Positions 3,001 to 33,129 of a DNA stretch of 64,000 nucleotides are shown in pieces. The DNA comes from Nanobdellota archaeon (lineage in GTDB: Archaea; Nanobdellota; Nanobdellia; Pacearchaeales; GW2011-AR1). The number at the start of each line of letters is the position of its first letter. The first letter of the stretch is position 1. The stretch is taken from NCBI GenBank assembly GCA_038045405.1, contig JBBSYF010000001.1, forward strand, positions 1,832 to 65,831, in the 5' to 3' direction. The notes beneath the pieces are model-generated. The model saw only the letters and a program-made list of their open reading frames with translations. It had not been told where the DNA came from and ran no database searches. The translations under genes and the position numbers were made by a program.

Positions 3001-3927
3001 ATGGTCTTTATAAAAAAATGTCCCGAGTGCGGAAGTATTCATCTTACTTATGATTCTCATCTTGGTGAAATAATATGCAATGATTGTGGTTTAGTCGTCG
3101 AGGAAAAGATGGTTGATACGGGAATTGACTTACAAAGTAAGTTCGATAAGGGTGAAAAAAAGGGACGTGGTGGAGCACCAACGAGCATTCAAAAATTCGA
3201 CAAAGGACTAACAACCAACGTTGGAGAGATTTCTGATATATACAAGCTTGAGCCGAAACAAACTAGAAAATTCTTAAGATTAAAAAAGTGGCAAGAGCGT
3301 GTCTCAACGAGCATTGAACGTAATTTGCGTCTTGCAATGGCCGAACTTAGAGTTATAGCTTCTTATCTTAATCTTCCAAACGTCATTAGAGACGACGCAG
3401 CAAGAATTTACAACTATGTTCTTCAGCGTGGCCTCGTTCGAGGCAGAAGCATGGAATCTGTTATCGCTGCATGTCTTTACGCTGCATGTAGAAGTTACAA
3501 CATTCCAAGAACTTTGGATGAAATGGCAACAGCTTCCGACGTTGAAAGAAAAGAAATTGGAAGAACATATCGTTTCATCATAAGAAAACTTGGAATAAAA
3601 GTAAACCAAAGTTCTCCAAAGGATTACATTTCAAGATTCTCCTCAGTTCTCAAACTTTCTCCAAAAACGCAGAATGATGCTCTTAAGGTTCTGAAGAGAG
3701 CAGAAGAAGTTGAATTAACCTCTGGCCGTGGTCCAGCAGGAATTGCTGCTGCAGCATTATACGTCGCTGCTTTGATGAATGACGAAAAGAAAACTCAAAG
3801 AGAAGTTGCAGATATTGCAGGAATAACAGAAGTTACAATAAGAAACCGTTACAAAGAACTTATTGAAAAACTTAATCTAGAAGAAAAAATCAAACAGAAA
3901 GAAGTTGAATCTAAGAAGAAAGTTTGA
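3001..3927 (+). CDS. tfb: Transcription initiation factor IIB (TFB)
   Basis: An N-terminal zinc ribbon 'CPECGS...CNDCG' is followed by two cyclin-like repeats, including 'SMESVIAACLYAACR' and 'GRGPAGIAAAALYVAA'. Confidence 0.95.
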   Translation: MVFIKKCPECGSIHLTYDSHLGEIICNDCGLVVEEKMVDTGIDLQSKFDKGEKKGRGGAPTSIQKFDKGLTTNVGEISDIYKLEPKQTRKFLRLKKWQERVSTSIERNLRLAMAELRVIASYLNLPNVIRDDAARIYNYVLQRGLVRGRSMESVIAACLYAACRSYNIPRTLDEMATASDVERKEIGRTYRFIIRKLGIKVNQSSPKDYISRFSSVLKLSPKTQNDALKVLKRAEEVELTSGRGPAGIAAAALYVAALMNDEKKTQREVADIAGITEVTIRNRYKELIEKLNLEEKIKQKEVESKKKV

Positions 3928-4267: not shown

Positions 4268-4992
4268 TTTTCAGATAAGTCAATAAGGTTTTTTACTTCT
4301 TGTGGAAAAGTATCGTTAACCTCTTTTTCTTCTCTCTTTACTCTTATATAAGTGGCATAATTTTTTTCCCCACATATTTTAAAAAAATCTGACTTGAAAT
4401 AAGTTTTCTTCAAGGCTAAACATTTTATTAAGTATAGTTCTCTCAATCTTAAAACAAGAGAATAAACAACCCCATCAAGAACTTTTTCATCATAATCTGT
4501 ACAAAAATTTACAAAGTCTTTATTCATTTTAAGCACACCTCTTATCTCTCCTAATGTCTTTTTAGGGTTAAAGGACTTTTTATTCTGAATATATTTTTCA
4601 ATAAGTTCTTTGTTTACTATAACATCTATTTCATTTAACATGCTTGCATAATACAAATTAGTTAGAAAATTTTTTGAGAGGCTTTCTTCTGAACATAAAA
4701 ATATTTCATAGTTTTTGTAAGTGATAAATTTATTTATTTCACTTGTTATAACCAAGATATCAATATCACTCCCCCTGTCATAATCTCCTCTAGAATAGCT
4801 ACCAAAAATATATATACCTTTTACCTCTTCATTTAAATTTTTGGTAAATAAAAAATCTAAAACATCTTTGGCAATTTCTGCTTTATCTGGCAAAAAAAGA
4901 GTTACAACTACTTGCTTATTTAACCATTTTCTCGGCAATAAAACGCCTGCTGAAGTTCCTACTTCTCTAGCTTGTTTTACTATAGTTTCCAT
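4231..4992 (-). CDS. Nucleotidyltransferase-domain protein with an AbrB-like N-terminus
   Basis: The minimal NTase motif 'GSYSRGDYDRGSDIDILV' is present. The N-terminus 'GTSAGVLLPRKWLNKQVVV' is AbrB-like. The start was moved to the internal ATG (METIVK) instead of the track start at 5079. Confidence 0.55.
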   Translation of the reverse strand: METIVKQAREVGTSAGVLLPRKWLNKQVVVTLFLPDKAEIAKDVLDFLFTKNLNEEVKGIYIFGSYSRGDYDRGSDIDILVITSEINKFITYKNYEIFLCSEESLSKNFLTNLYYASMLNEIDVIVNKELIEKYIQNKKSFNPKKTLGEIRGVLKMNKDFVNFCTDYDEKVLDGVVYSLVLRLRELYLIKCLALKKTYFKSDFFKICGEKNYATYIRVKREEKEVNDTFPQEVKNLIDLSEKWLKELKEQKRV

Positions 4993-5099
4993 ATTATAAT
5001 ATATTATAATACCACTTATAAACTTTATCTTTATCATAAGTTGTAATAAAATATTCAAATAACAAACTTTATTAAACAAAATAATTCTCTCATTTTAAC

Positions 5100-14700: not shown

Positions 14701-14807
14701 ACATTATATTTAAATATTTGGTGAAATTCCTAAAAGGACCAGGTCCCGTTGCCTATTGTTCAGAACAGAATAGAAAGATTAATAAATTAGTGGAAATTAA
14801 CTTAATA

Positions 14808-15857
14808 ATGAAATCAAGGGAAAGAAGAATAAAGCTAAAAAAGGGTGTTCAAAGAGAGATAATCCTTGAAGCTTCCAAAAGAGAAGGAAATATGAAGAAG
14901 ATGGCAGCAAAAGTAAAAGTCCCATACTCTACAATGAAGAATTACTCGGCAGAATACAGATTCTTACCGGAGAATTTATTTAATAATTTGTTAAAATTGT
15001 CCAACAAATCTACAGAAAATATTGATGCTTCTTACTTAGACTATAAATGGGGGCAACGCTTAGGAGGAAAATTGGGAATAAGAGCACTTGAAAAGAAATA
15101 TCCAGGTAAGATTAAGAAATGGAGAAGTTTAGCCATGAAAAAAGCACTAAGGACTAATCCACGTCTAAAAAAGATAAACTTACCCAAGATTAGTGAAGAG
15201 TTAGCAGAGTTTATAGGAATCTATTTAGGGGATGGTACAATGACAACAAATCAGATTAGAATAGTTGGCGATGCTAGGTACGATGTATTCTACTTCGAAT
15301 ACATATCTAAAATGGTTTATCATTTATTCGGGTTAAAAACTTCTTTAATAAAACATAAGGATACAAACACCTTTCTAGTTGTTGTTTATTCAAAGGCTTT
15401 ATGTGAGTTTATGAATCAAAATTTTAACTTGAAACCAGGAGATAAGATAAGAAATCAAAGCGGTATCCCTCAAAAGATTTTTCGGAATATAAATTTCGCA
15501 AAGGCTTGCTTAAGAGGGCTTATAGACACTGACGGATCGGTTTCAAGAAGGGGGAGAAACGGTAGTCAGTTTTGCATCCAATTCACTTCACACAATAAAA
15601 AACTTTTAGGTCAAGTGAAAAAAATAAACAAAAGACTTAAAATTTTTACATTTGGGGATGAAACAGGAACAGGTACGAATAAGTGGGAGAATATAGTCAA
15701 ATATTTTCAAATTGTTGGTAGCTCAAATCCAAAACACATAGTACGTTTTCTTTTAAGAAAAGAAGGTAGAGTTATTTATAGAGATGAATTGTCTTTTTAC
15801 TTCAAACAGGAAAGGTTTAAAGATTTAAATTTACCATTCAATTTAGGGGGCGTATAA
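14808..15857 (+). CDS. Free-standing double-motif LAGLIDADG homing endonuclease-like protein
   Basis: The two motifs are 'LAEFIGIYLGDGT' and 'CLRGLIDTDGS'. It is a paralog of the ORF at 32148-33059. The ATG at 14808 aligns with the paralog N-terminus, whereas the track start at 14718 is TTG. The last 10 nt overlap tRNA-Val. Confidence 0.8.
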   Translation: MKSRERRIKLKKGVQREIILEASKREGNMKKMAAKVKVPYSTMKNYSAEYRFLPENLFNNLLKLSNKSTENIDASYLDYKWGQRLGGKLGIRALEKKYPGKIKKWRSLAMKKALRTNPRLKKINLPKISEELAEFIGIYLGDGTMTTNQIRIVGDARYDVFYFEYISKMVYHLFGLKTSLIKHKDTNTFLVVVYSKALCEFMNQNFNLKPGDKIRNQSGIPQKIFRNINFAKACLRGLIDTDGSVSRRGRNGSQFCIQFTSHNKKLLGQVKKINKRLKIFTFGDETGTGTNKWENIVKYFQIVGSSNPKHIVRFLLRKEGRVIYRDELSFYFKQERFKDLNLPFNLGGV

Positions 15858-15918
15858 GCTAGCGGTAAACTGTGTCCTTGACGTGGACAATTCCCAAGTT
15901 CAACTCTTGGTACGCCCA
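15848..15918 (+). tRNA. tRNA-Val(GAC)
   Basis: The acceptor is GGGCGTA/TACGCCC and the anticodon arm is TGTCC-TTGACGT-GGACA. The T arm is CCAAG-TTCAACT-CTTGG. The D arm AGCT-AGCGGTA-AACT has one C-A mismatch. Confidence 0.75.
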
Positions 15919-15962
15919 TCCTTGACGTGGACAAAGCGCAGGTTCGATTCCTGTCAGGGCCA
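15919..15962 (+). pseudogene. 3' fragment of a second tRNA-Val(GAC) gene
   Basis: It begins with the 16-nt TCCTTGACGTGGACAA, identical to 15875-15890. It continues with a different T arm (GCAGG-TTCGATT-CCTGT) and acceptor strand (CAGGGCC-A). No matching 5' half (GGCCCTG) was seen nearby. Confidence 0.7.
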
Positions 15963-16004
15963 TTTTTTAACAACCTTTAAAAAGCCATTTTATCTTTTTC
16001 AAAT

Positions 16005-26433: not shown

Positions 26434-29409
26434 ATGCTTGAAAAACTTGGAGAGGTTCTAAGAAAAGCAACAGATAAGGTAGCAAATGCTATATTCCTTG
26501 ACAAAAACCTCGTTGATTCTATAGTAAAAGACCTTCAACGTGCTCTTATAGAAGCAGACGTTAACGTTGCTCTAGTAAAAGATATTTCAGACCAAATTCG
26601 CAAGGCTGCAATGGATGAAAGAATTAATGGTTTGGAAAAGAAAGAGCATATGATTAAACTCCTTCATGACAGGCTTACAGAAATACTAGGAGAATACAAG
26701 CCATTAACATTGGCTGGTTCCCATGAGCAAAATAGGATAATGTTCTTGGGTTTGTACGGGGCAGGAAAATGTGTTCACCCAGATAGCAATGTTCAGTTAG
26801 CCAACGGAGAGATAATTAGAATTGAAGAACTTTATGAGAGATATGCAAAAAACTTCGAAGAAGAAAGTCTGGAGGATGGTAAAATAATTGAGATATCAAA
26901 CTCGAATCTTTTTGTGCCCTCTTTTAATCCCCTTACTGCAAAAATAGAAAATAAAAGAGCAACCCATTTATGGAAGCTAAACAAAAAAGATTTAGTAGAA
27001 ATTAAAGCAGAAAACGGTAATGATTTCTCGATTAAAGTAACCCCTGAACATCCTTTCTTTGCATTAAAAAATGGACAAATAAATAAGATTAGGGCAGATA
27101 ACTTAACAGAAAACGATTATATCGCAATTCCAAGAGAAATAGACATAAGAGGAAATCCGATAGATCTATCTAAAAGGATAAAGAACTTTAATCTGTCGGG
27201 AGTAAACGACAGAAGAAAAAAGCCGATTAATTTCCCTTCTTTTCTTAATCCCGAATTAGCAGAGTTTATCGGATATGTAATGGGAGATGGACACATAGGA
27301 AGCAGATATGTAGAAATTGTTACAGAGGACATGGAGATTATAGATAGAGTAATTTATCTCTCAAAAAATTTATTCGGTTTGAATGTCCTACCAAAAAGGG
27401 ATTTGAGAACAAAGAATATGGTTAAGCTGATAGTCATGTCCTCAACATTGGTGAAAATACTTTCTATTTTTGGCTTAAAACCAGGGAAAAAGGGTAAACA
27501 ATTAAAGATTTCAGATGAAATCTTAAGGTCAGATAAAGAAGTGATAAGGAGTTTTATAAGAGCATATTTTGACTGTGATTCTTATGCCGCAAAAAATAGA
27601 AGATCAATAGAACTTACGTCAGAAAGCAATATCCTGATTAAACAAATGAGTTTATTATTAAACAGGTTTAATATTGCCTCTACAACATCAAAAAAATTGA
27701 TTAATAGTGTTCCTTATTGGAGACTGATTATTAAGTCAAAATCAGCAGAATTATATTCTGATAGAATAGGGTATCTCATAGAAAGAAAACAAAAGATCAT
27801 AGACAGCTACAAGTTAATTGGGATAAATCAAGGGTGCGGAGATCAGGAAATGATTCCTCTGGGAAAAATTCTAAAAGAGATAAGGGAACAATTAGGATTT
27901 TCAATAGGAGAAATACAAGCAAATGCCGTCTTTAGTTATGGGGGGTACGAAGAAAAAGGTTTTATATCTAGAGAACACTTAAAAAAATTAATAAGTTATT
28001 ATAGAGGCAGAAAAGGGAGATTTTTCCAAATTCTTGATTCTATTTCAAGAAAAGAAAATATTTATGAAAAATATTCTAAAGAGGTAATAAATGGTTTGAC
28101 CCACTTCTTGGAAAATCAAGGTGTAATACACAAAGAAAGAGGAAATGTAACTTTAACAGAAAGTGGATTAGAATCACTCCAATCAATAAAAACTAATAAT
28201 TTAGTTGAAATATTAAGTAATCTTGAGCTTCTTTCAGAATCTGATGTTTTTTGGGTTTCAATTAAAGAAGTAAACAAAATAACAAACGAAAGGGGGGTAG
28301 TTTATGATTTAACAGTAGAAGATAATCATAGTTTCATAGCAGAGGGGTTTATAGTCCACAACACAACAACGATTGCAAAACTAGGGAATTATTTTGCAAA
28401 GCGTGGAAACAGAGTTGTTCTTGTTGGTCTTGATGTTCATCGTCCCGCGGCTGCAGAACAATTGAAACAGATGGCAGACAAAAACAAAATTCCATGTATT
28501 GTTGATTTAGAAGAAAAAAATCCAATTAAGATACTTAAAAAATACAAAAAAGAATTGAATGAATATGACGTTGTTCTTCTCGACACTGCGGGAAGACATT
28601 CTTTAGACAAAGATTTGATAAAAGAAATAAAATCAATCTCCGATGAGGCAAAGCCAACAGAAACAATTCTTGTAATGCCTGCTGATATAGGCCAAGCAGC
28701 AAAAAAACAGGCAAAAGAATTTCAAGAGGCAGTTAAGATTTCCGGTGTGATTATTACAAGAATGGACTCTACTGCTAAAGGGGGCGGCTCTTTGACAGCA
28801 TGTGCAGAAACAAAGGCACCAGTGTACTTTATTACAACAGGAGAAAAAATAAACGATATCGAAGAGTTCAATCCTAAATCTTTCCTTTCAAGATTGTTAG
28901 GTATGGGTGACCTTGAAGCATTGATGGAAAAAGTCCGTTCTGTAACCGGAGAAGATAAGCAGAAACAAATGCAAAAAAAGATGGAAGAGGGAAAGATATC
29001 CCTTGAAGACGTTATAGAACAAGTCAAATCAATGAATTCTCTTGGGGGTTTTGAAAAAATAAAGTCTATGATTCCCGGCTTTTCTTCAGCAAAAATTCCT
29101 GAAGGAACTCTTGAAAACCAAGAAGCAAAAGTTGCAAAATGGGAACATATAATAAAATCAATGACAAAAGAAGAGCGAGAAAATCCGGAACTTCTTGAAA
29201 AACAAACTCAAAGAATAGGGCGTGTTGCACAGGGTGCGGGAGTTAACAACAGCGATGTTCGTGCTCTTCTAAAACAGTACAAAATGTTAAATGAAATGAT
29301 AAAGTCAGGTATGGGCTCTGGAGGTATGGACATGTCTCAAGGAATGAGCCAAAAACAAATGCAAAAATTTGCAAAGAAATTTGGTAAGATGAAAAAGATG
29401 AGGTTTTAA
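26434..29409 (+). CDS. srp54: Signal recognition particle protein SRP54, interrupted by an intein
   Basis: The exteins carry 'GLYGAGK|TTTIAKL', 'DTAGR', 'TRMDSTAKGG' and a Met-rich M domain. The ORF is 991 aa in total, of which 460 aa is extein. Confidence 0.9.
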   Translation: MLEKLGEVLRKATDKVANAIFLDKNLVDSIVKDLQRALIEADVNVALVKDISDQIRKAAMDERINGLEKKEHMIKLLHDRLTEILGEYKPLTLAGSHEQNRIMFLGLYGAGKCVHPDSNVQLANGEIIRIEELYERYAKNFEEESLEDGKIIEISNSNLFVPSFNPLTAKIENKRATHLWKLNKKDLVEIKAENGNDFSIKVTPEHPFFALKNGQINKIRADNLTENDYIAIPREIDIRGNPIDLSKRIKNFNLSGVNDRRKKPINFPSFLNPELAEFIGYVMGDGHIGSRYVEIVTEDMEIIDRVIYLSKNLFGLNVLPKRDLRTKNMVKLIVMSSTLVKILSIFGLKPGKKGKQLKISDEILRSDKEVIRSFIRAYFDCDSYAAKNRRSIELTSESNILIKQMSLLLNRFNIASTTSKKLINSVPYWRLIIKSKSAELYSDRIGYLIERKQKIIDSYKLIGINQGCGDQEMIPLGKILKEIREQLGFSIGEIQANAVFSYGGYEEKGFISREHLKKLISYYRGRKGRFFQILDSISRKENIYEKYSKEVINGLTHFLENQGVIHKERGNVTLTESGLESLQSIKTNNLVEILSNLELLSESDVFWVSIKEVNKITNERGVVYDLTVEDNHSFIAEGFIVHNTTTIAKLGNYFAKRGNRVVLVGLDVHRPAAAEQLKQMADKNKIPCIVDLEEKNPIKILKKYKKELNEYDVVLLDTAGRHSLDKDLIKEIKSISDEAKPTETILVMPADIGQAAKKQAKEFQEAVKISGVIITRMDSTAKGGGSLTACAETKAPVYFITTGEKINDIEEFNPKSFLSRLLGMGDLEALMEKVRSVTGEDKQKQMQKKMEEGKISLEDVIEQVKSMNSLGGFEKIKSMIPGFSSAKIPEGTLENQEAKVAKWEHIIKSMTKEERENPELLEKQTQRIGRVAQGAGVNNSDVRALLKQYKMLNEMIKSGMGSGGMDMSQGMSQKQMQKFAKKFGKMKKMRF
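26770..28362 (+). mobile_element. Intein (531 aa) with a LAGLIDADG endonuclease domain, inserted in the SRP54 P-loop
   Basis: It begins with Cys ('CVHPD') and has a block B 'TPEHPF'. The LAGLIDADG motifs are 'LAEFIGYVMGDGHI' and 'IRAYFDCDSY'. It ends '..GFIVHN' and is followed by Thr at +1. Confidence 0.85.
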
Positions 29410-32089: not shown

Positions 32090-32162
32090 TAGCCCCACTC
32101 GGATTCGAACCGAGGTTTCAGCCTTCAAAGGGCCGCGAACTTGACCACTATTCTATGGGGCT
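32090..32162 (-). tRNA. tRNA-Gln(UUG)
   Basis: Read on the minus strand, the acceptor is AGCCCCA/TGGGGCT and the D arm is GAAT-AGTGGTCAA-GTTC. The anticodon arm is CGGCC-CTTTGAA-GGCTG. The T arm is CTCGG-TTCGAAT-CCGAG. Confidence 0.88.
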
Positions 32163-33059: not shown

Positions 33060-33109
33060 AGATTAAGTAAGAATCAGATATTTATATACTTTTTGACCGC
33101 TACACCACA

Positions 33110-33129
33110 TTCGAATCCTGGCGGGGCTA
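33110..33129 (+). pseudogene. tRNA 3'-end fragment (T loop, T stem and acceptor), inverted relative to tRNA-Gln
   Basis: TTCGAATCCTGGCGGGGCTA compares with the tRNA-Gln 3' end TTCGAATCCGAGTGGGGCTA. There is no 5' partner, and the 5' strand of the T stem is missing. Confidence 0.55.

Follow-up and report, generated by a model that had tools for sequence, protein, structure and literature searches.

Homing endonuclease genes are, to our knowledge, thought to survive in essential genes only by way of self-splicing introns or inteins, and otherwise to lie between genes without doing harm. Archaeal rRNA introns carrying LAGLIDADG genes exist, for example that of I-DmoI, and DPANN archaea are known for split and oddly interrupted tRNAs. 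Integrase-bearing islands of the SSV type insert in tRNA genes, restore the 3′ part of the tRNA and leave a tRNA fragment as a footprint; about 44 nt, from the anticodon arm to the 3′ end, is the classic size of the attachment (att) core in a tRNA gene. The phage protein SegB is a GIY-YIG enzyme. In T4 and T6 it is encoded by a free-standing homing endonuclease gene within a tRNA gene cluster (Brok-Volchanskaya et al. 2008, as cited in PMC13096335); PMC13096335 states that SegB cuts within tRNA genes of genomes lacking segB, that the adjacent tRNA region is preferentially inherited or amplified, and that SegB homologues are widely co-located with tRNA genes. 'Fractured genes', as reported by Dassa et al. 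(2009, PMC2677866), hold a free-standing homing endonuclease gene between split-intein halves. Here we analyze a locus in a 64,000-nucleotide stretch of a Nanobdellota archaeon genome (GenBank assembly GCA_038045405.1, contig JBBSYF010000001.1, positions 1,832 to 65,831 of the forward strand; hereafter the window, with positions counted from its first letter), where a LAGLIDADG endonuclease gene runs into a complete tRNA-Val(GAC) gene and both lie between the remnants of another. We consider it likely that the unit is a mobile homing element, a LAGLIDADG gene plus a spare tRNA that invades and replaces the resident tRNA-Val(GAC). An earlier note on this DNA knew of no description of such an arrangement, and our literature search, incomplete in coverage, likewise found none of an endonuclease cassette with a spare tRNA or of this family in DPANN archaea and bacteria of the candidate phyla radiation (CPR).

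The open reading frame (ORF) of the endonuclease ends in a TAA codon at 15855-15857, which occupies positions 8-10 of the tRNA; the 10-nt overlap consists of the 7-nt acceptor strand and these three positions. ARAGORN identifies the tRNA-Val(GAC) at 15848-15918, and the Rfam tRNA model matches it over its full length (53.8 bits, E = 2.9e-10). A second Rfam match follows immediately: a search begun at 15919, which admits truncated matches, gives a 5′-truncated tRNA at 15919-15962 that covers model positions 28-71 (26.3 bits, E = 3e-4). The two share 16 nucleotides, TCCTTGACGTGGACAA, at 15875-15890 and 15919-15934, after which the T arm (GCAGG/CCTGT) and acceptor strand (CAGGGCC) of the fragment are unlike those of the full tRNA. 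The earlier note had read the overlap, the abutting second segment, and the exact repeat with its divergent continuation correctly. It had started the ORF at a TTG at 14718, and the ATG at 14808, the start common to all homologues, is likelier; it had also found no 5′ partner for the fragment nearby, and a decayed one lies upstream of the ORF at 14742-14767. The 16-nt repeat is present in the window because the anticodon arm is shared by the cassette and resident tRNAs. A duplication created by the insertion was considered as its source and ruled out, as the repeat corresponds to the conserved anticodon arm of two paralogous tRNA-Val(GAC) genes. Gene conversion, considered as a means of keeping the anticodon arm of the fragment identical to that of the neighboring tRNA (in the window and L001), was dropped, since the pattern is broken by L081 and L082.

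The interval 14768-15918 is a cassette of about 1.15 kb, comprising a leader, the ORF and the spare tRNA, placed between nucleotides 26 and 27 of the resident gene. Nucleotides 27-28 of that gene are missing in the window. Within the interval the LAGLIDADG gene is the only sense-strand entry of at least 50 aa in the ORF list; a 58-aa antisense ORF (15797-15973, minus strand) overlaps the tRNA region. The locus is flanked by genes for ribosomal proteins L44e and S3Ae, and by a small membrane-protein gene that is also common to the empty sites described below.

Relatives without the cassette were located through homologues of the adjacent ribosomal protein S3Ae. These contigs (L087-L094) have the gene order of the window on both sides and the same promoter motif, lack the endonuclease gene, and contain one uninterrupted tRNA-Val(GAC). 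In an alignment of the joined flanks of the window, L081 and L082 with the intact tRNA-Val(GAC) of empty sites (alignment A2), the flanks are colinear with the intact gene. With one remnant spanning positions 1-26 and the other 27-73, the two do not overlap, and there is no target duplication, as expected for an endonuclease-driven insertion. Those of L082 are the best preserved, with 22/25 identical positions in the 5′ piece and 43/45 in the 3′ piece; the corresponding values for the window are about 17/25 (against L089) and 36/43. Sites filled at 26/27 are found in the window, L081-L085, L001 and L008. The empty-site genomes are closely related to the window genome (82-85% identity in S3Ae, about 90% in L44e), whereas several filled-site genomes reach only 59-70% in S3Ae. 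Because the empty-site genomes are closer to the window than several of the filled ones, the cassette has a patchy distribution among relatives, and its position is the same to the nucleotide in every case. This comparison supports the proposal in the earlier note that an endonuclease-plus-tRNA unit came in, interrupted a resident tRNA-Val and took over its function. The cut moves from the anticodon stem, where the note had put it, to the junction of the D arm and anticodon stem. The note had named as fatal to its idea a tRNA-plus-fragment arrangement in relatives without the ORF; these carry one intact tRNA-Val(GAC) and no such arrangement.

The architecture recurs in other loci. An ORF that runs into a tRNA-Val, with a 3′ fragment abutting or close after the discriminator base, is present in L001, L008, L018, L081, L082, L084 and L085; in L013, L030 and L036 the 3′ pieces behind the tRNA are shorter or further decayed. 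A tRNA-like 5′ piece precedes the ORF in the window, L081, L082 and L083. The 3′ remnant of L085 includes a 35-nt insert at the canonical 37/38 intron site, where the empty site L087 also has an intron; this agreement marks the remnants as real former genes. The resident-type tRNA-Val(GAC) is polymorphic for this 37/38 intron of 35-41 nt (L087/L088, at about 3011-3122, and the L085 3′ remnant), and ARAGORN miscalled the tRNA-Val(GAC) of L087 as tRNA-Gly.

The remnants are decayed to different degrees. In the window, the 5′ acceptor strand GGTCCCG pairs with CAGGGCC at 6/7 positions, leaving a C-A mismatch, and G18/G19 and the D-stem pairing are lost. The acceptor strand GGCCTCG of L082 pairs at 7/7 positions with the downstream CGGGGCC, and the count for L081 is 6/7. 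ARAGORN calls no tRNA from the joined window remnants even at relaxed settings; the joined remnants of L082 are still recognized. Rfam gives no match to the window 5′ remnant alone, and about 17/26 matches to the intact 5′ half also arise by chance elsewhere in the window. The 5′ piece, insignificant taken alone, is thus probably a tRNA remnant by virtue of its position and a chain of homology that runs from the window through L081 and L082 to the intact gene.

The spare tRNA looks functional, judging from its full cloverleaf and from compensatory changes across genomes. Among six cassette-bearing genomes the cassette tRNAs are identical at 63-71/71 positions, and every stem is kept through such changes. 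They agree with the resident tRNAs of the empty sites at only 46-51/71 positions; the differences are concentrated in the acceptor stem, the T loop and the D-stem side of the insertion point, and the anticodon arm is shared. In the empty sites L087, L089 and L092 the intact tRNA is preceded, at 20-28 nt, by a TATATTTAAATATTT-type motif, which is also found upstream of the 5′ remnant in the window, L081 and L082, where the remnant begins 22-28 nt downstream. A further box, GATTTAAATTTA, is found at the equivalent place in the window, L081-L084 and L001, and it encodes the conserved DLNL of the endonuclease C-terminus. The resident tRNA promoter, the AT-rich box of the leader and the TATA-like box in the 3′ end of the ORF could all drive expression of the endonuclease and tRNA. 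As the stop codon falls within the tRNA, a co-transcript would lose it on processing by RNase P; as a matter of speculation, this might limit endonuclease expression. We also observe a palindrome, GGACC-A-GGTCC, at 14737-14747: the 5 nt that precede the 5′ remnant and its own first 5 nt are reverse complements. The equivalent spot in L081 reads GACC-T-GGTC, and the palindrome may be due to chance.

The window protein matches Pfam LAGLIDADG_3 with E = 1.9e-12, and an identical 349-aa protein beginning at the same ATG is present in the database, from a 'Nanoarchaeota archaeon' metagenome-assembled genome (MAG). A profile search of the PDB identifies the endonuclease domains of archaeal V-ATPase inteins (7qss/7qsu, E = 8e-9). 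The AlphaFold2 model (predicted local distance difference test score 88.8) contains an N-terminal helical extension of about 125 aa and two LAGLIDADG motifs, LAEFIGIYLGDGT and ACLRGLIDTDGS, in an α-β-β-α-β-β-α pseudo-dimeric fold. The top Foldseek matches to this model are TliVMA, PI-PfuI, I-AniI, bI3 maturase, I-DmoI and WhiA, with a probability of 1.00 for PI-PfuI, I-AniI, I-DmoI and others. Each motif closes with one catalytic acidic residue (LGDGT and IDTDGS), and these are conserved across the 26 homologues of alignment A1: Asp142 is present in at least 90% of them and Asp242 is invariant. The motif-1 Asp is replaced (LGAGS) in a single aligned sequence, P0067 from L018. With its double-motif fold and conserved catalytic Asp residues, the modeled protein looks active. 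A total of 464 homologues are detected at E <= 1e-3, and most of those listed are about 345-355 aa long and align end to end; the best 120 of the 464 are 42-76% identical and derive mainly from Pacearchaeota, Woesearchaeota and Nanoarchaeota MAGs. The C-termini of homologues (LPFxLKGV and KGPVV, each followed by the stop) are translated tRNA 5′ ends.

Linkage to tRNA genes extends over the family. We fetched 80 family loci from species-representative genomes, 78 of which have sufficient downstream sequence for a count. A same-strand tRNA, scored when its T arm lies within -60 to +160 nt of the ORF stop, is found at the stop in 70/78 loci, compared with about 1.5% expected from the tRNA density of the same flanks. 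The earlier note would have given up its idea had homologous endonuclease genes never adjoined tRNA genes. Several ARAGORN isotype calls were wrong at intron-bearing tRNAs and were corrected before grouping. The archaeal loci nearest to the window protein have tRNA-Val, mostly GAC and sometimes CAC; the next archaeal clade has tRNA-Gln(CTG), with a few Glu or Gly, and CPR bacterial homologues adjoin tRNA-Ser. Remnants of tRNA 5′ ends lie about 20-110 nt before the ATG in many loci of the archaeal Val and Gln clades, and no 5′ remnants of this archaeal type were seen in the bacterial Ser-clade loci. The remnant end in the Gln clade is ambiguous, at about position 21 or 26. The CPR homologues (within L040-L080; for example L049, L050, L058, L064 and L075) are 27-33% identical and lie in tRNA-Ser clusters. 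Often the ATG is directly preceded by a tRNA-Ser, or by an orphan 3′ end of one, and a further tRNA-Ser comes just after the stop.

The window itself holds a second family member (Table 1), whose ORF extends 15 nt into a tRNA-Gln(TTG). The remnant upstream of it is a perfect 20-nt inverted copy of a tRNA-Gln 3′ end, TAGCCCCGCCAGGATTCGAA (33129-33110), fused to a D-arm piece, TGTGGTGTAGCGGTCAA, and followed by the TATA-like AAAGTATATAAATA; the inverted 3′ end may be a product of fold-back repair. A remnant of the form GGTCAA plus AAGTA-TATAAA precedes most of the tRNA-Gln-linked homologues. A third, distantly related LAGLIDADG protein within the 64 kb is the intein that interrupts the SRP54 gene (26434-29409, plus strand; Pfam Intein_splicing and LAGLIDADG_3).

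Table 1. Positions of the features of the tRNA-Val(GAC) locus and of the second family member in the window
Feature	Position	Strand	Basis
Resident tRNA-Val promoter, TATA-like TATATTTAAATATTT	14705..14719	+	Invariant columns in A2; putative promoter by archaeal TATA geometry
5′ remnant of resident tRNA-Val(GAC), positions 1-26, degenerate, GGTCCCGTTGCCTATTGTTCAGAACA	14742..14767	+	Colinear with intact tRNA in A2
Cassette left end, AT-rich leader	14768..14807	+	Conserved in window, L081, L082 and L004 directly after 5′ remnant
TATA-like TTAATAAATTA in leader	14779-14789	+	20-28 nt before ATG; putative promoter
Free-standing double-motif LAGLIDADG endonuclease gene, 349 aa	14808..15857	+	Pfam LAGLIDADG_3; stop codon within tRNA
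TATA-like box GATTTAAATTTA in ORF 3′ end	15822..15833	+	15-26 nt before cassette tRNA; putative promoter
Cassette-borne spare tRNA-Val(GAC)	15848..15918	+	ARAGORN; Rfam 53.8 bits
3′ remnant of resident tRNA-Val(GAC), positions 29-73	15919..15962	+	Rfam truncated tRNA match; alignment with empty sites
T-run CCATTTTT after resident tRNA 3′ end	15963..15968	+	In empty and filled sites alike; putative terminator
tRNA-Gln(TTG) of second member	32090..32162	-	ARAGORN; ORF stop TAG 32150-32148 inside tRNA
Second family member, LAGLIDADG ORF, 303 aa	32148..33059	-	tblastn 35% identity to first protein, E 2e-33; Pfam LAGLIDADG_3 E 2e-15
Resident tRNA-Gln remnants upstream of second ORF	33093..33129	-	Sequence reading

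Several family loci depart from the layout of the window. In L018 (3392-5010) a tRNA-Val(GAC) is followed by three tRNA-Val 3′ fragments (3465-3510, about 4275-4319 and about 4966-5010), which alternate with two small modules resembling toxin-antitoxin pairs; the array looks like serial insertions into one tRNA, and the endonuclease there is the one without the first catalytic Asp. From the ORF translations, we take the modules to be putative PIN and AbrB-like proteins. Two successive 5′ tRNA remnants lie upstream of a single endonuclease gene in L019 (about 700-800), one of 15 nt that exactly matches the beginning of the downstream tRNA-Val(CAC) and an older one of about 25 nt, which suggests two rounds of invasion. 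The Iainarchaeum loci L026, L028 and L031 have a tRNA-Val(CAC) just upstream of the ORF, a mirror image of the window layout. In L031 only an orphan 3′ fragment follows the ORF; it has 27 nt, GCGGGAATCGGCGGTTCGAATCCGCCC, in common with the upstream tRNA and a different acceptor strand. L016 is the sole locus with its tRNA-Val(GAC) (1067-1137) on the opposite strand, overlapping the ORF end.

Across 21 pairs from seven cassette-bearing genomes, a small sample, endonuclease identity does not follow that of the host ribosomal proteins (Spearman -0.11), a mismatch that fits horizontal spread. L082, whose host is the most distant, has the best-preserved remnants and an endonuclease that is among the most similar, as would be expected for a recent invasion. 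A scan of viral contigs gave no close relatives and only weak, generic LAGLIDADG matches, and a virus vector is not indicated. A metagenome scan with the single window protein returned 4 loci only.

The insertion architecture, the empty sites, the tRNA linkage across the family, the intact LAGLIDADG fold with its catalytic residues and the mismatch with host phylogeny are all observed; homing is the most economical reading of them. In the mechanism that we propose, the enzyme would recognize and cut the uninterrupted tRNA-Val(GAC) of cassette-free genomes near the junction of the D stem and anticodon stem (26/27). The break would then be repaired by copying the cassette from a filled allele, with the two tRNA halves acting as homology arms. 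The cassette tRNA would take over from the destroyed essential gene, the spare gene doing the job that splicing does for introns and inteins. It would remain uncut because the 5′ half of its presumed target differs, CTAGCGGTAAACTG as against CTAATGGTAGACCA in the resident gene; in other family members the spare tRNA would be protected by a D-loop intron at the presumed target.

D-loop introns (at about 16/17 or 20/21) are present in the cassette-linked tRNA-Val of L002, L005, L010, L012, L017, L019, L020, L022, L025, L032 and L038, and in the cassette-linked tRNA-Gln of L034, L035, L052 and L061. Sequence near the intron 3′ end is complementary to the upstream exon, in the manner of a bulge-helix-bulge (BHB) motif, and ARAGORN miscalled the isotype of these tRNAs. 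An exact coincidence of the introns with the insertion point was considered and dropped, as the 5′ remnants of L010, L012 and L020 run intron-free to about 25-26. At 6-10 nt upstream of the insertion point, the introns might still disrupt a 20-bp endonuclease target and so protect the tRNA.

Several points weigh against a mobile homing element. The target site is taken from the insertion point alone, and cleavage and mobility are read from sequence. The window remnants are old, with a 5′ piece about 65% identical to the intact gene and joined halves that no longer score as a tRNA; as a mobile element the window copy may thus be inactive and fixed. Conservation in the family is good and length is constant (44-76% identity over 349 aa), which would also fit a function retained for the host. 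How the cassette originally acquired a whole tRNA is unexplained, as is the exact coincidence of its right end with the tRNA discriminator base. Not all cassette tRNAs differ from the resident gene at positions 25-26: that of L008 keeps A26, which makes the immunity argument weak. Finally, the phylogenetic mismatch comes from seven genomes only.

The serious residual rival, in our judgment unlikely, accepts the insertion as real and regards the LAGLIDADG protein as a domesticated DNA-binding or regulatory factor, WhiA-like or acting at the tRNA locus, and not as its driver; the tRNA would then have been interrupted by illegitimate recombination or by another recombinase. The constant length of the family under strong purifying selection and the retention of the ORF-tRNA overlap over deep divergence favor this view, as do the N-terminal helical domain, the presence of WhiA among the structural neighbors, and the survival of the arrangement in L018, where P0067 has lost the first catalytic Asp. 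However, nearly all members keep the catalytic acidic residues, unlike WhiA, and the element is present or absent among close relatives at exactly one nucleotide position. Endonuclease identity does not follow host identity, paralogues within one genome occupy different tRNAs, each with remnants of its own, and the ORF list shows no other recombinase gene in the 1.15-kb cassette.

It is very unlikely that the fragment is the att footprint of an integrase-type element or provirus, of the SSV type, at the 3′ half of tRNA-Val, with the endonuclease unrelated to it. The length of about 44 nt would suit such a footprint, and the L018 array resembles serial integration. But the insert consists of the endonuclease gene and tRNA only. 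There is no integrase gene in or near the cassette according to the ORF list, and no tyrosine or serine recombinase among the sense-strand ORFs of at least 50 aa or the flanking genes. The two ends of the insert have no att direct repeats, the 16-nt repeat being one between two tRNA genes, and the remnants are non-overlapping halves of one gene with no duplicated core. Nor is the fragment a repeat of the full tRNA, since its T arm and acceptor strand are different.

Extremely unlikely, in our view, is a functional split tRNA, which the earlier note had offered as its alternative: the 44-nt piece would be a 3′ half, or the 3′ exon of a tRNA with a giant intron, joined at the RNA level to a 5′ half. 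In its favor, the host is a DPANN archaeon, the anticodon and T arms of the fragment are intact, an upstream 5′ piece has a nearly complementary acceptor strand, and archaeal rRNA introns offer a precedent for LAGLIDADG genes in such a position. A matching 5′ half from an ordinary split tRNA would have told against the main reading of the earlier note; the 5′ piece is degenerate and immediately upstream of the ORF, hence the other half of the interrupted gene and not half of a split tRNA. Its loss of G18/G19 and D-stem pairing, the C-A mismatch in the acceptor stem and the failure of the joined halves in ARAGORN leave the two pieces without a valid cloverleaf. The pieces supply no isoacceptor that is otherwise missing, as the GAC anticodon of the 3′ remnant duplicates that of the intact tRNA immediately upstream. 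Remnants also decay differently from locus to locus, the anticodon loop being destroyed in L084 and L036 and the 5′ piece deleted in L001. When the 64-kb window was scanned for 5′ halves whose acceptor strand is complementary to CAGGGCC (exact, G-U tolerant, and with a D-arm filter), all matches were at chance level, and no other half with a GGCCCTG-type acceptor is found there. Since the acceptor strand of the spare tRNA takes up the 3′ junction, a BHB motif or a leader/trailer at that point is less likely.

There is next to no chance that the arrangement was produced by an error of assembly or by a local tandem duplication of part of the tRNA: the exact 16-nt direct repeat, 44 nt apart, would suit a duplication, but past these 16 nt the fragment diverges from the adjacent tRNA and matches the resident type of the empty sites, and the same architecture occurs in independent NCBI, ENA and JGI assemblies.

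In our estimate, the chances are about even that the mobile homing element proposed here represents an undescribed class of self-compensating elements, each a LAGLIDADG gene with a spare, cleavage-resistant tRNA that invades the matching isoacceptor gene at about 26/27. If so, a second copy of the target would be a third way into an essential gene, beside introns and inteins; it would be a different evolutionary solution, in which the endonuclease gene brings along a replacement for the target that is destroyed. Members would occur across DPANN archaea, at tRNA-Val, tRNA-Gln and others, and relatives next to tRNA-Ser in CPR bacteria; the class would drive the turnover of tRNA genes and the formation of tRNA pseudogene fragments. 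If confirmed, it would explain orphan tRNA fragments and rapid tRNA gene replacement in DPANN archaea and perhaps also in CPR bacteria, for which the linkage to tRNA-Ser is all that is seen. D-loop introns might be selected for breaking the endonuclease target, giving direct support to the old idea that disruption of tRNA genes guards against mobile elements, and a concrete selective agent would be at hand for archaeal tRNA introns at odd positions and for split genes, whose cause has long been debated. The family would also provide a natural set of LAGLIDADG enzymes whose targets, tRNA genes, can be read from genomes. For annotation, tRNA finders miscalled many family loci, and the endonuclease ORFs overlap tRNA genes.

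Among known systems, SegB is the closest analogue. Both are free-standing endonuclease genes that adjoin tRNA genes. SegB is a phage-borne GIY-YIG enzyme, whereas the cassette encodes a LAGLIDADG protein in an archaeal chromosome among ribosomal protein genes; with neither a GIY-YIG domain nor a phage context, the window protein is SegB-like in its working and not a member of the Seg type. In the same account segB lies between tRNA genes and splits no resident tRNA, whereas the cassette splits its resident at 26/27 and is flanked by the half-remnants. Nor is a one-to-one isoacceptor specificity ascribed there to SegB, unlike the cassette family of DPANN and CPR chromosomes. I-DmoI from a 23S rRNA intron and the inteins PI-PfuI and TliVMA have the same fold and are the closest sequence and structure matches. 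Like the cassette, intron and intein LAGLIDADG enzymes invade a conserved essential gene at one position, giving empty and filled alleles. Introns and inteins are made harmless by splicing; in the cassette there is no splicing, the target is destroyed, and a putative cleavage-resistant copy is supplied in cis. Elements of the SSV type also insert in a tRNA gene and bring replacement tRNA sequence, and the L018 array invites comparison with them. They use a tyrosine or serine recombinase and a duplicated att core, whereas the cassette has neither and carries a complete spare tRNA overlapped by the endonuclease gene. In fractured genes an endonuclease gene also physically divides a host gene in two. 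The pieces there are functional and are rejoined by protein splicing in trans, whereas those flanking the cassette are dead and the spare gene serves in their place. The split tRNAs of Nanoarchaeum and the non-canonical introns of Thermoproteales resemble the family in having tRNA genes in pieces and BHB-type introns in the D loop; unlike the Nanoarchaeum split tRNAs, the window pieces are not rejoined and allow no cloverleaf, and it is the spare tRNA-Val(GAC) carried by the cassette that would do their work.

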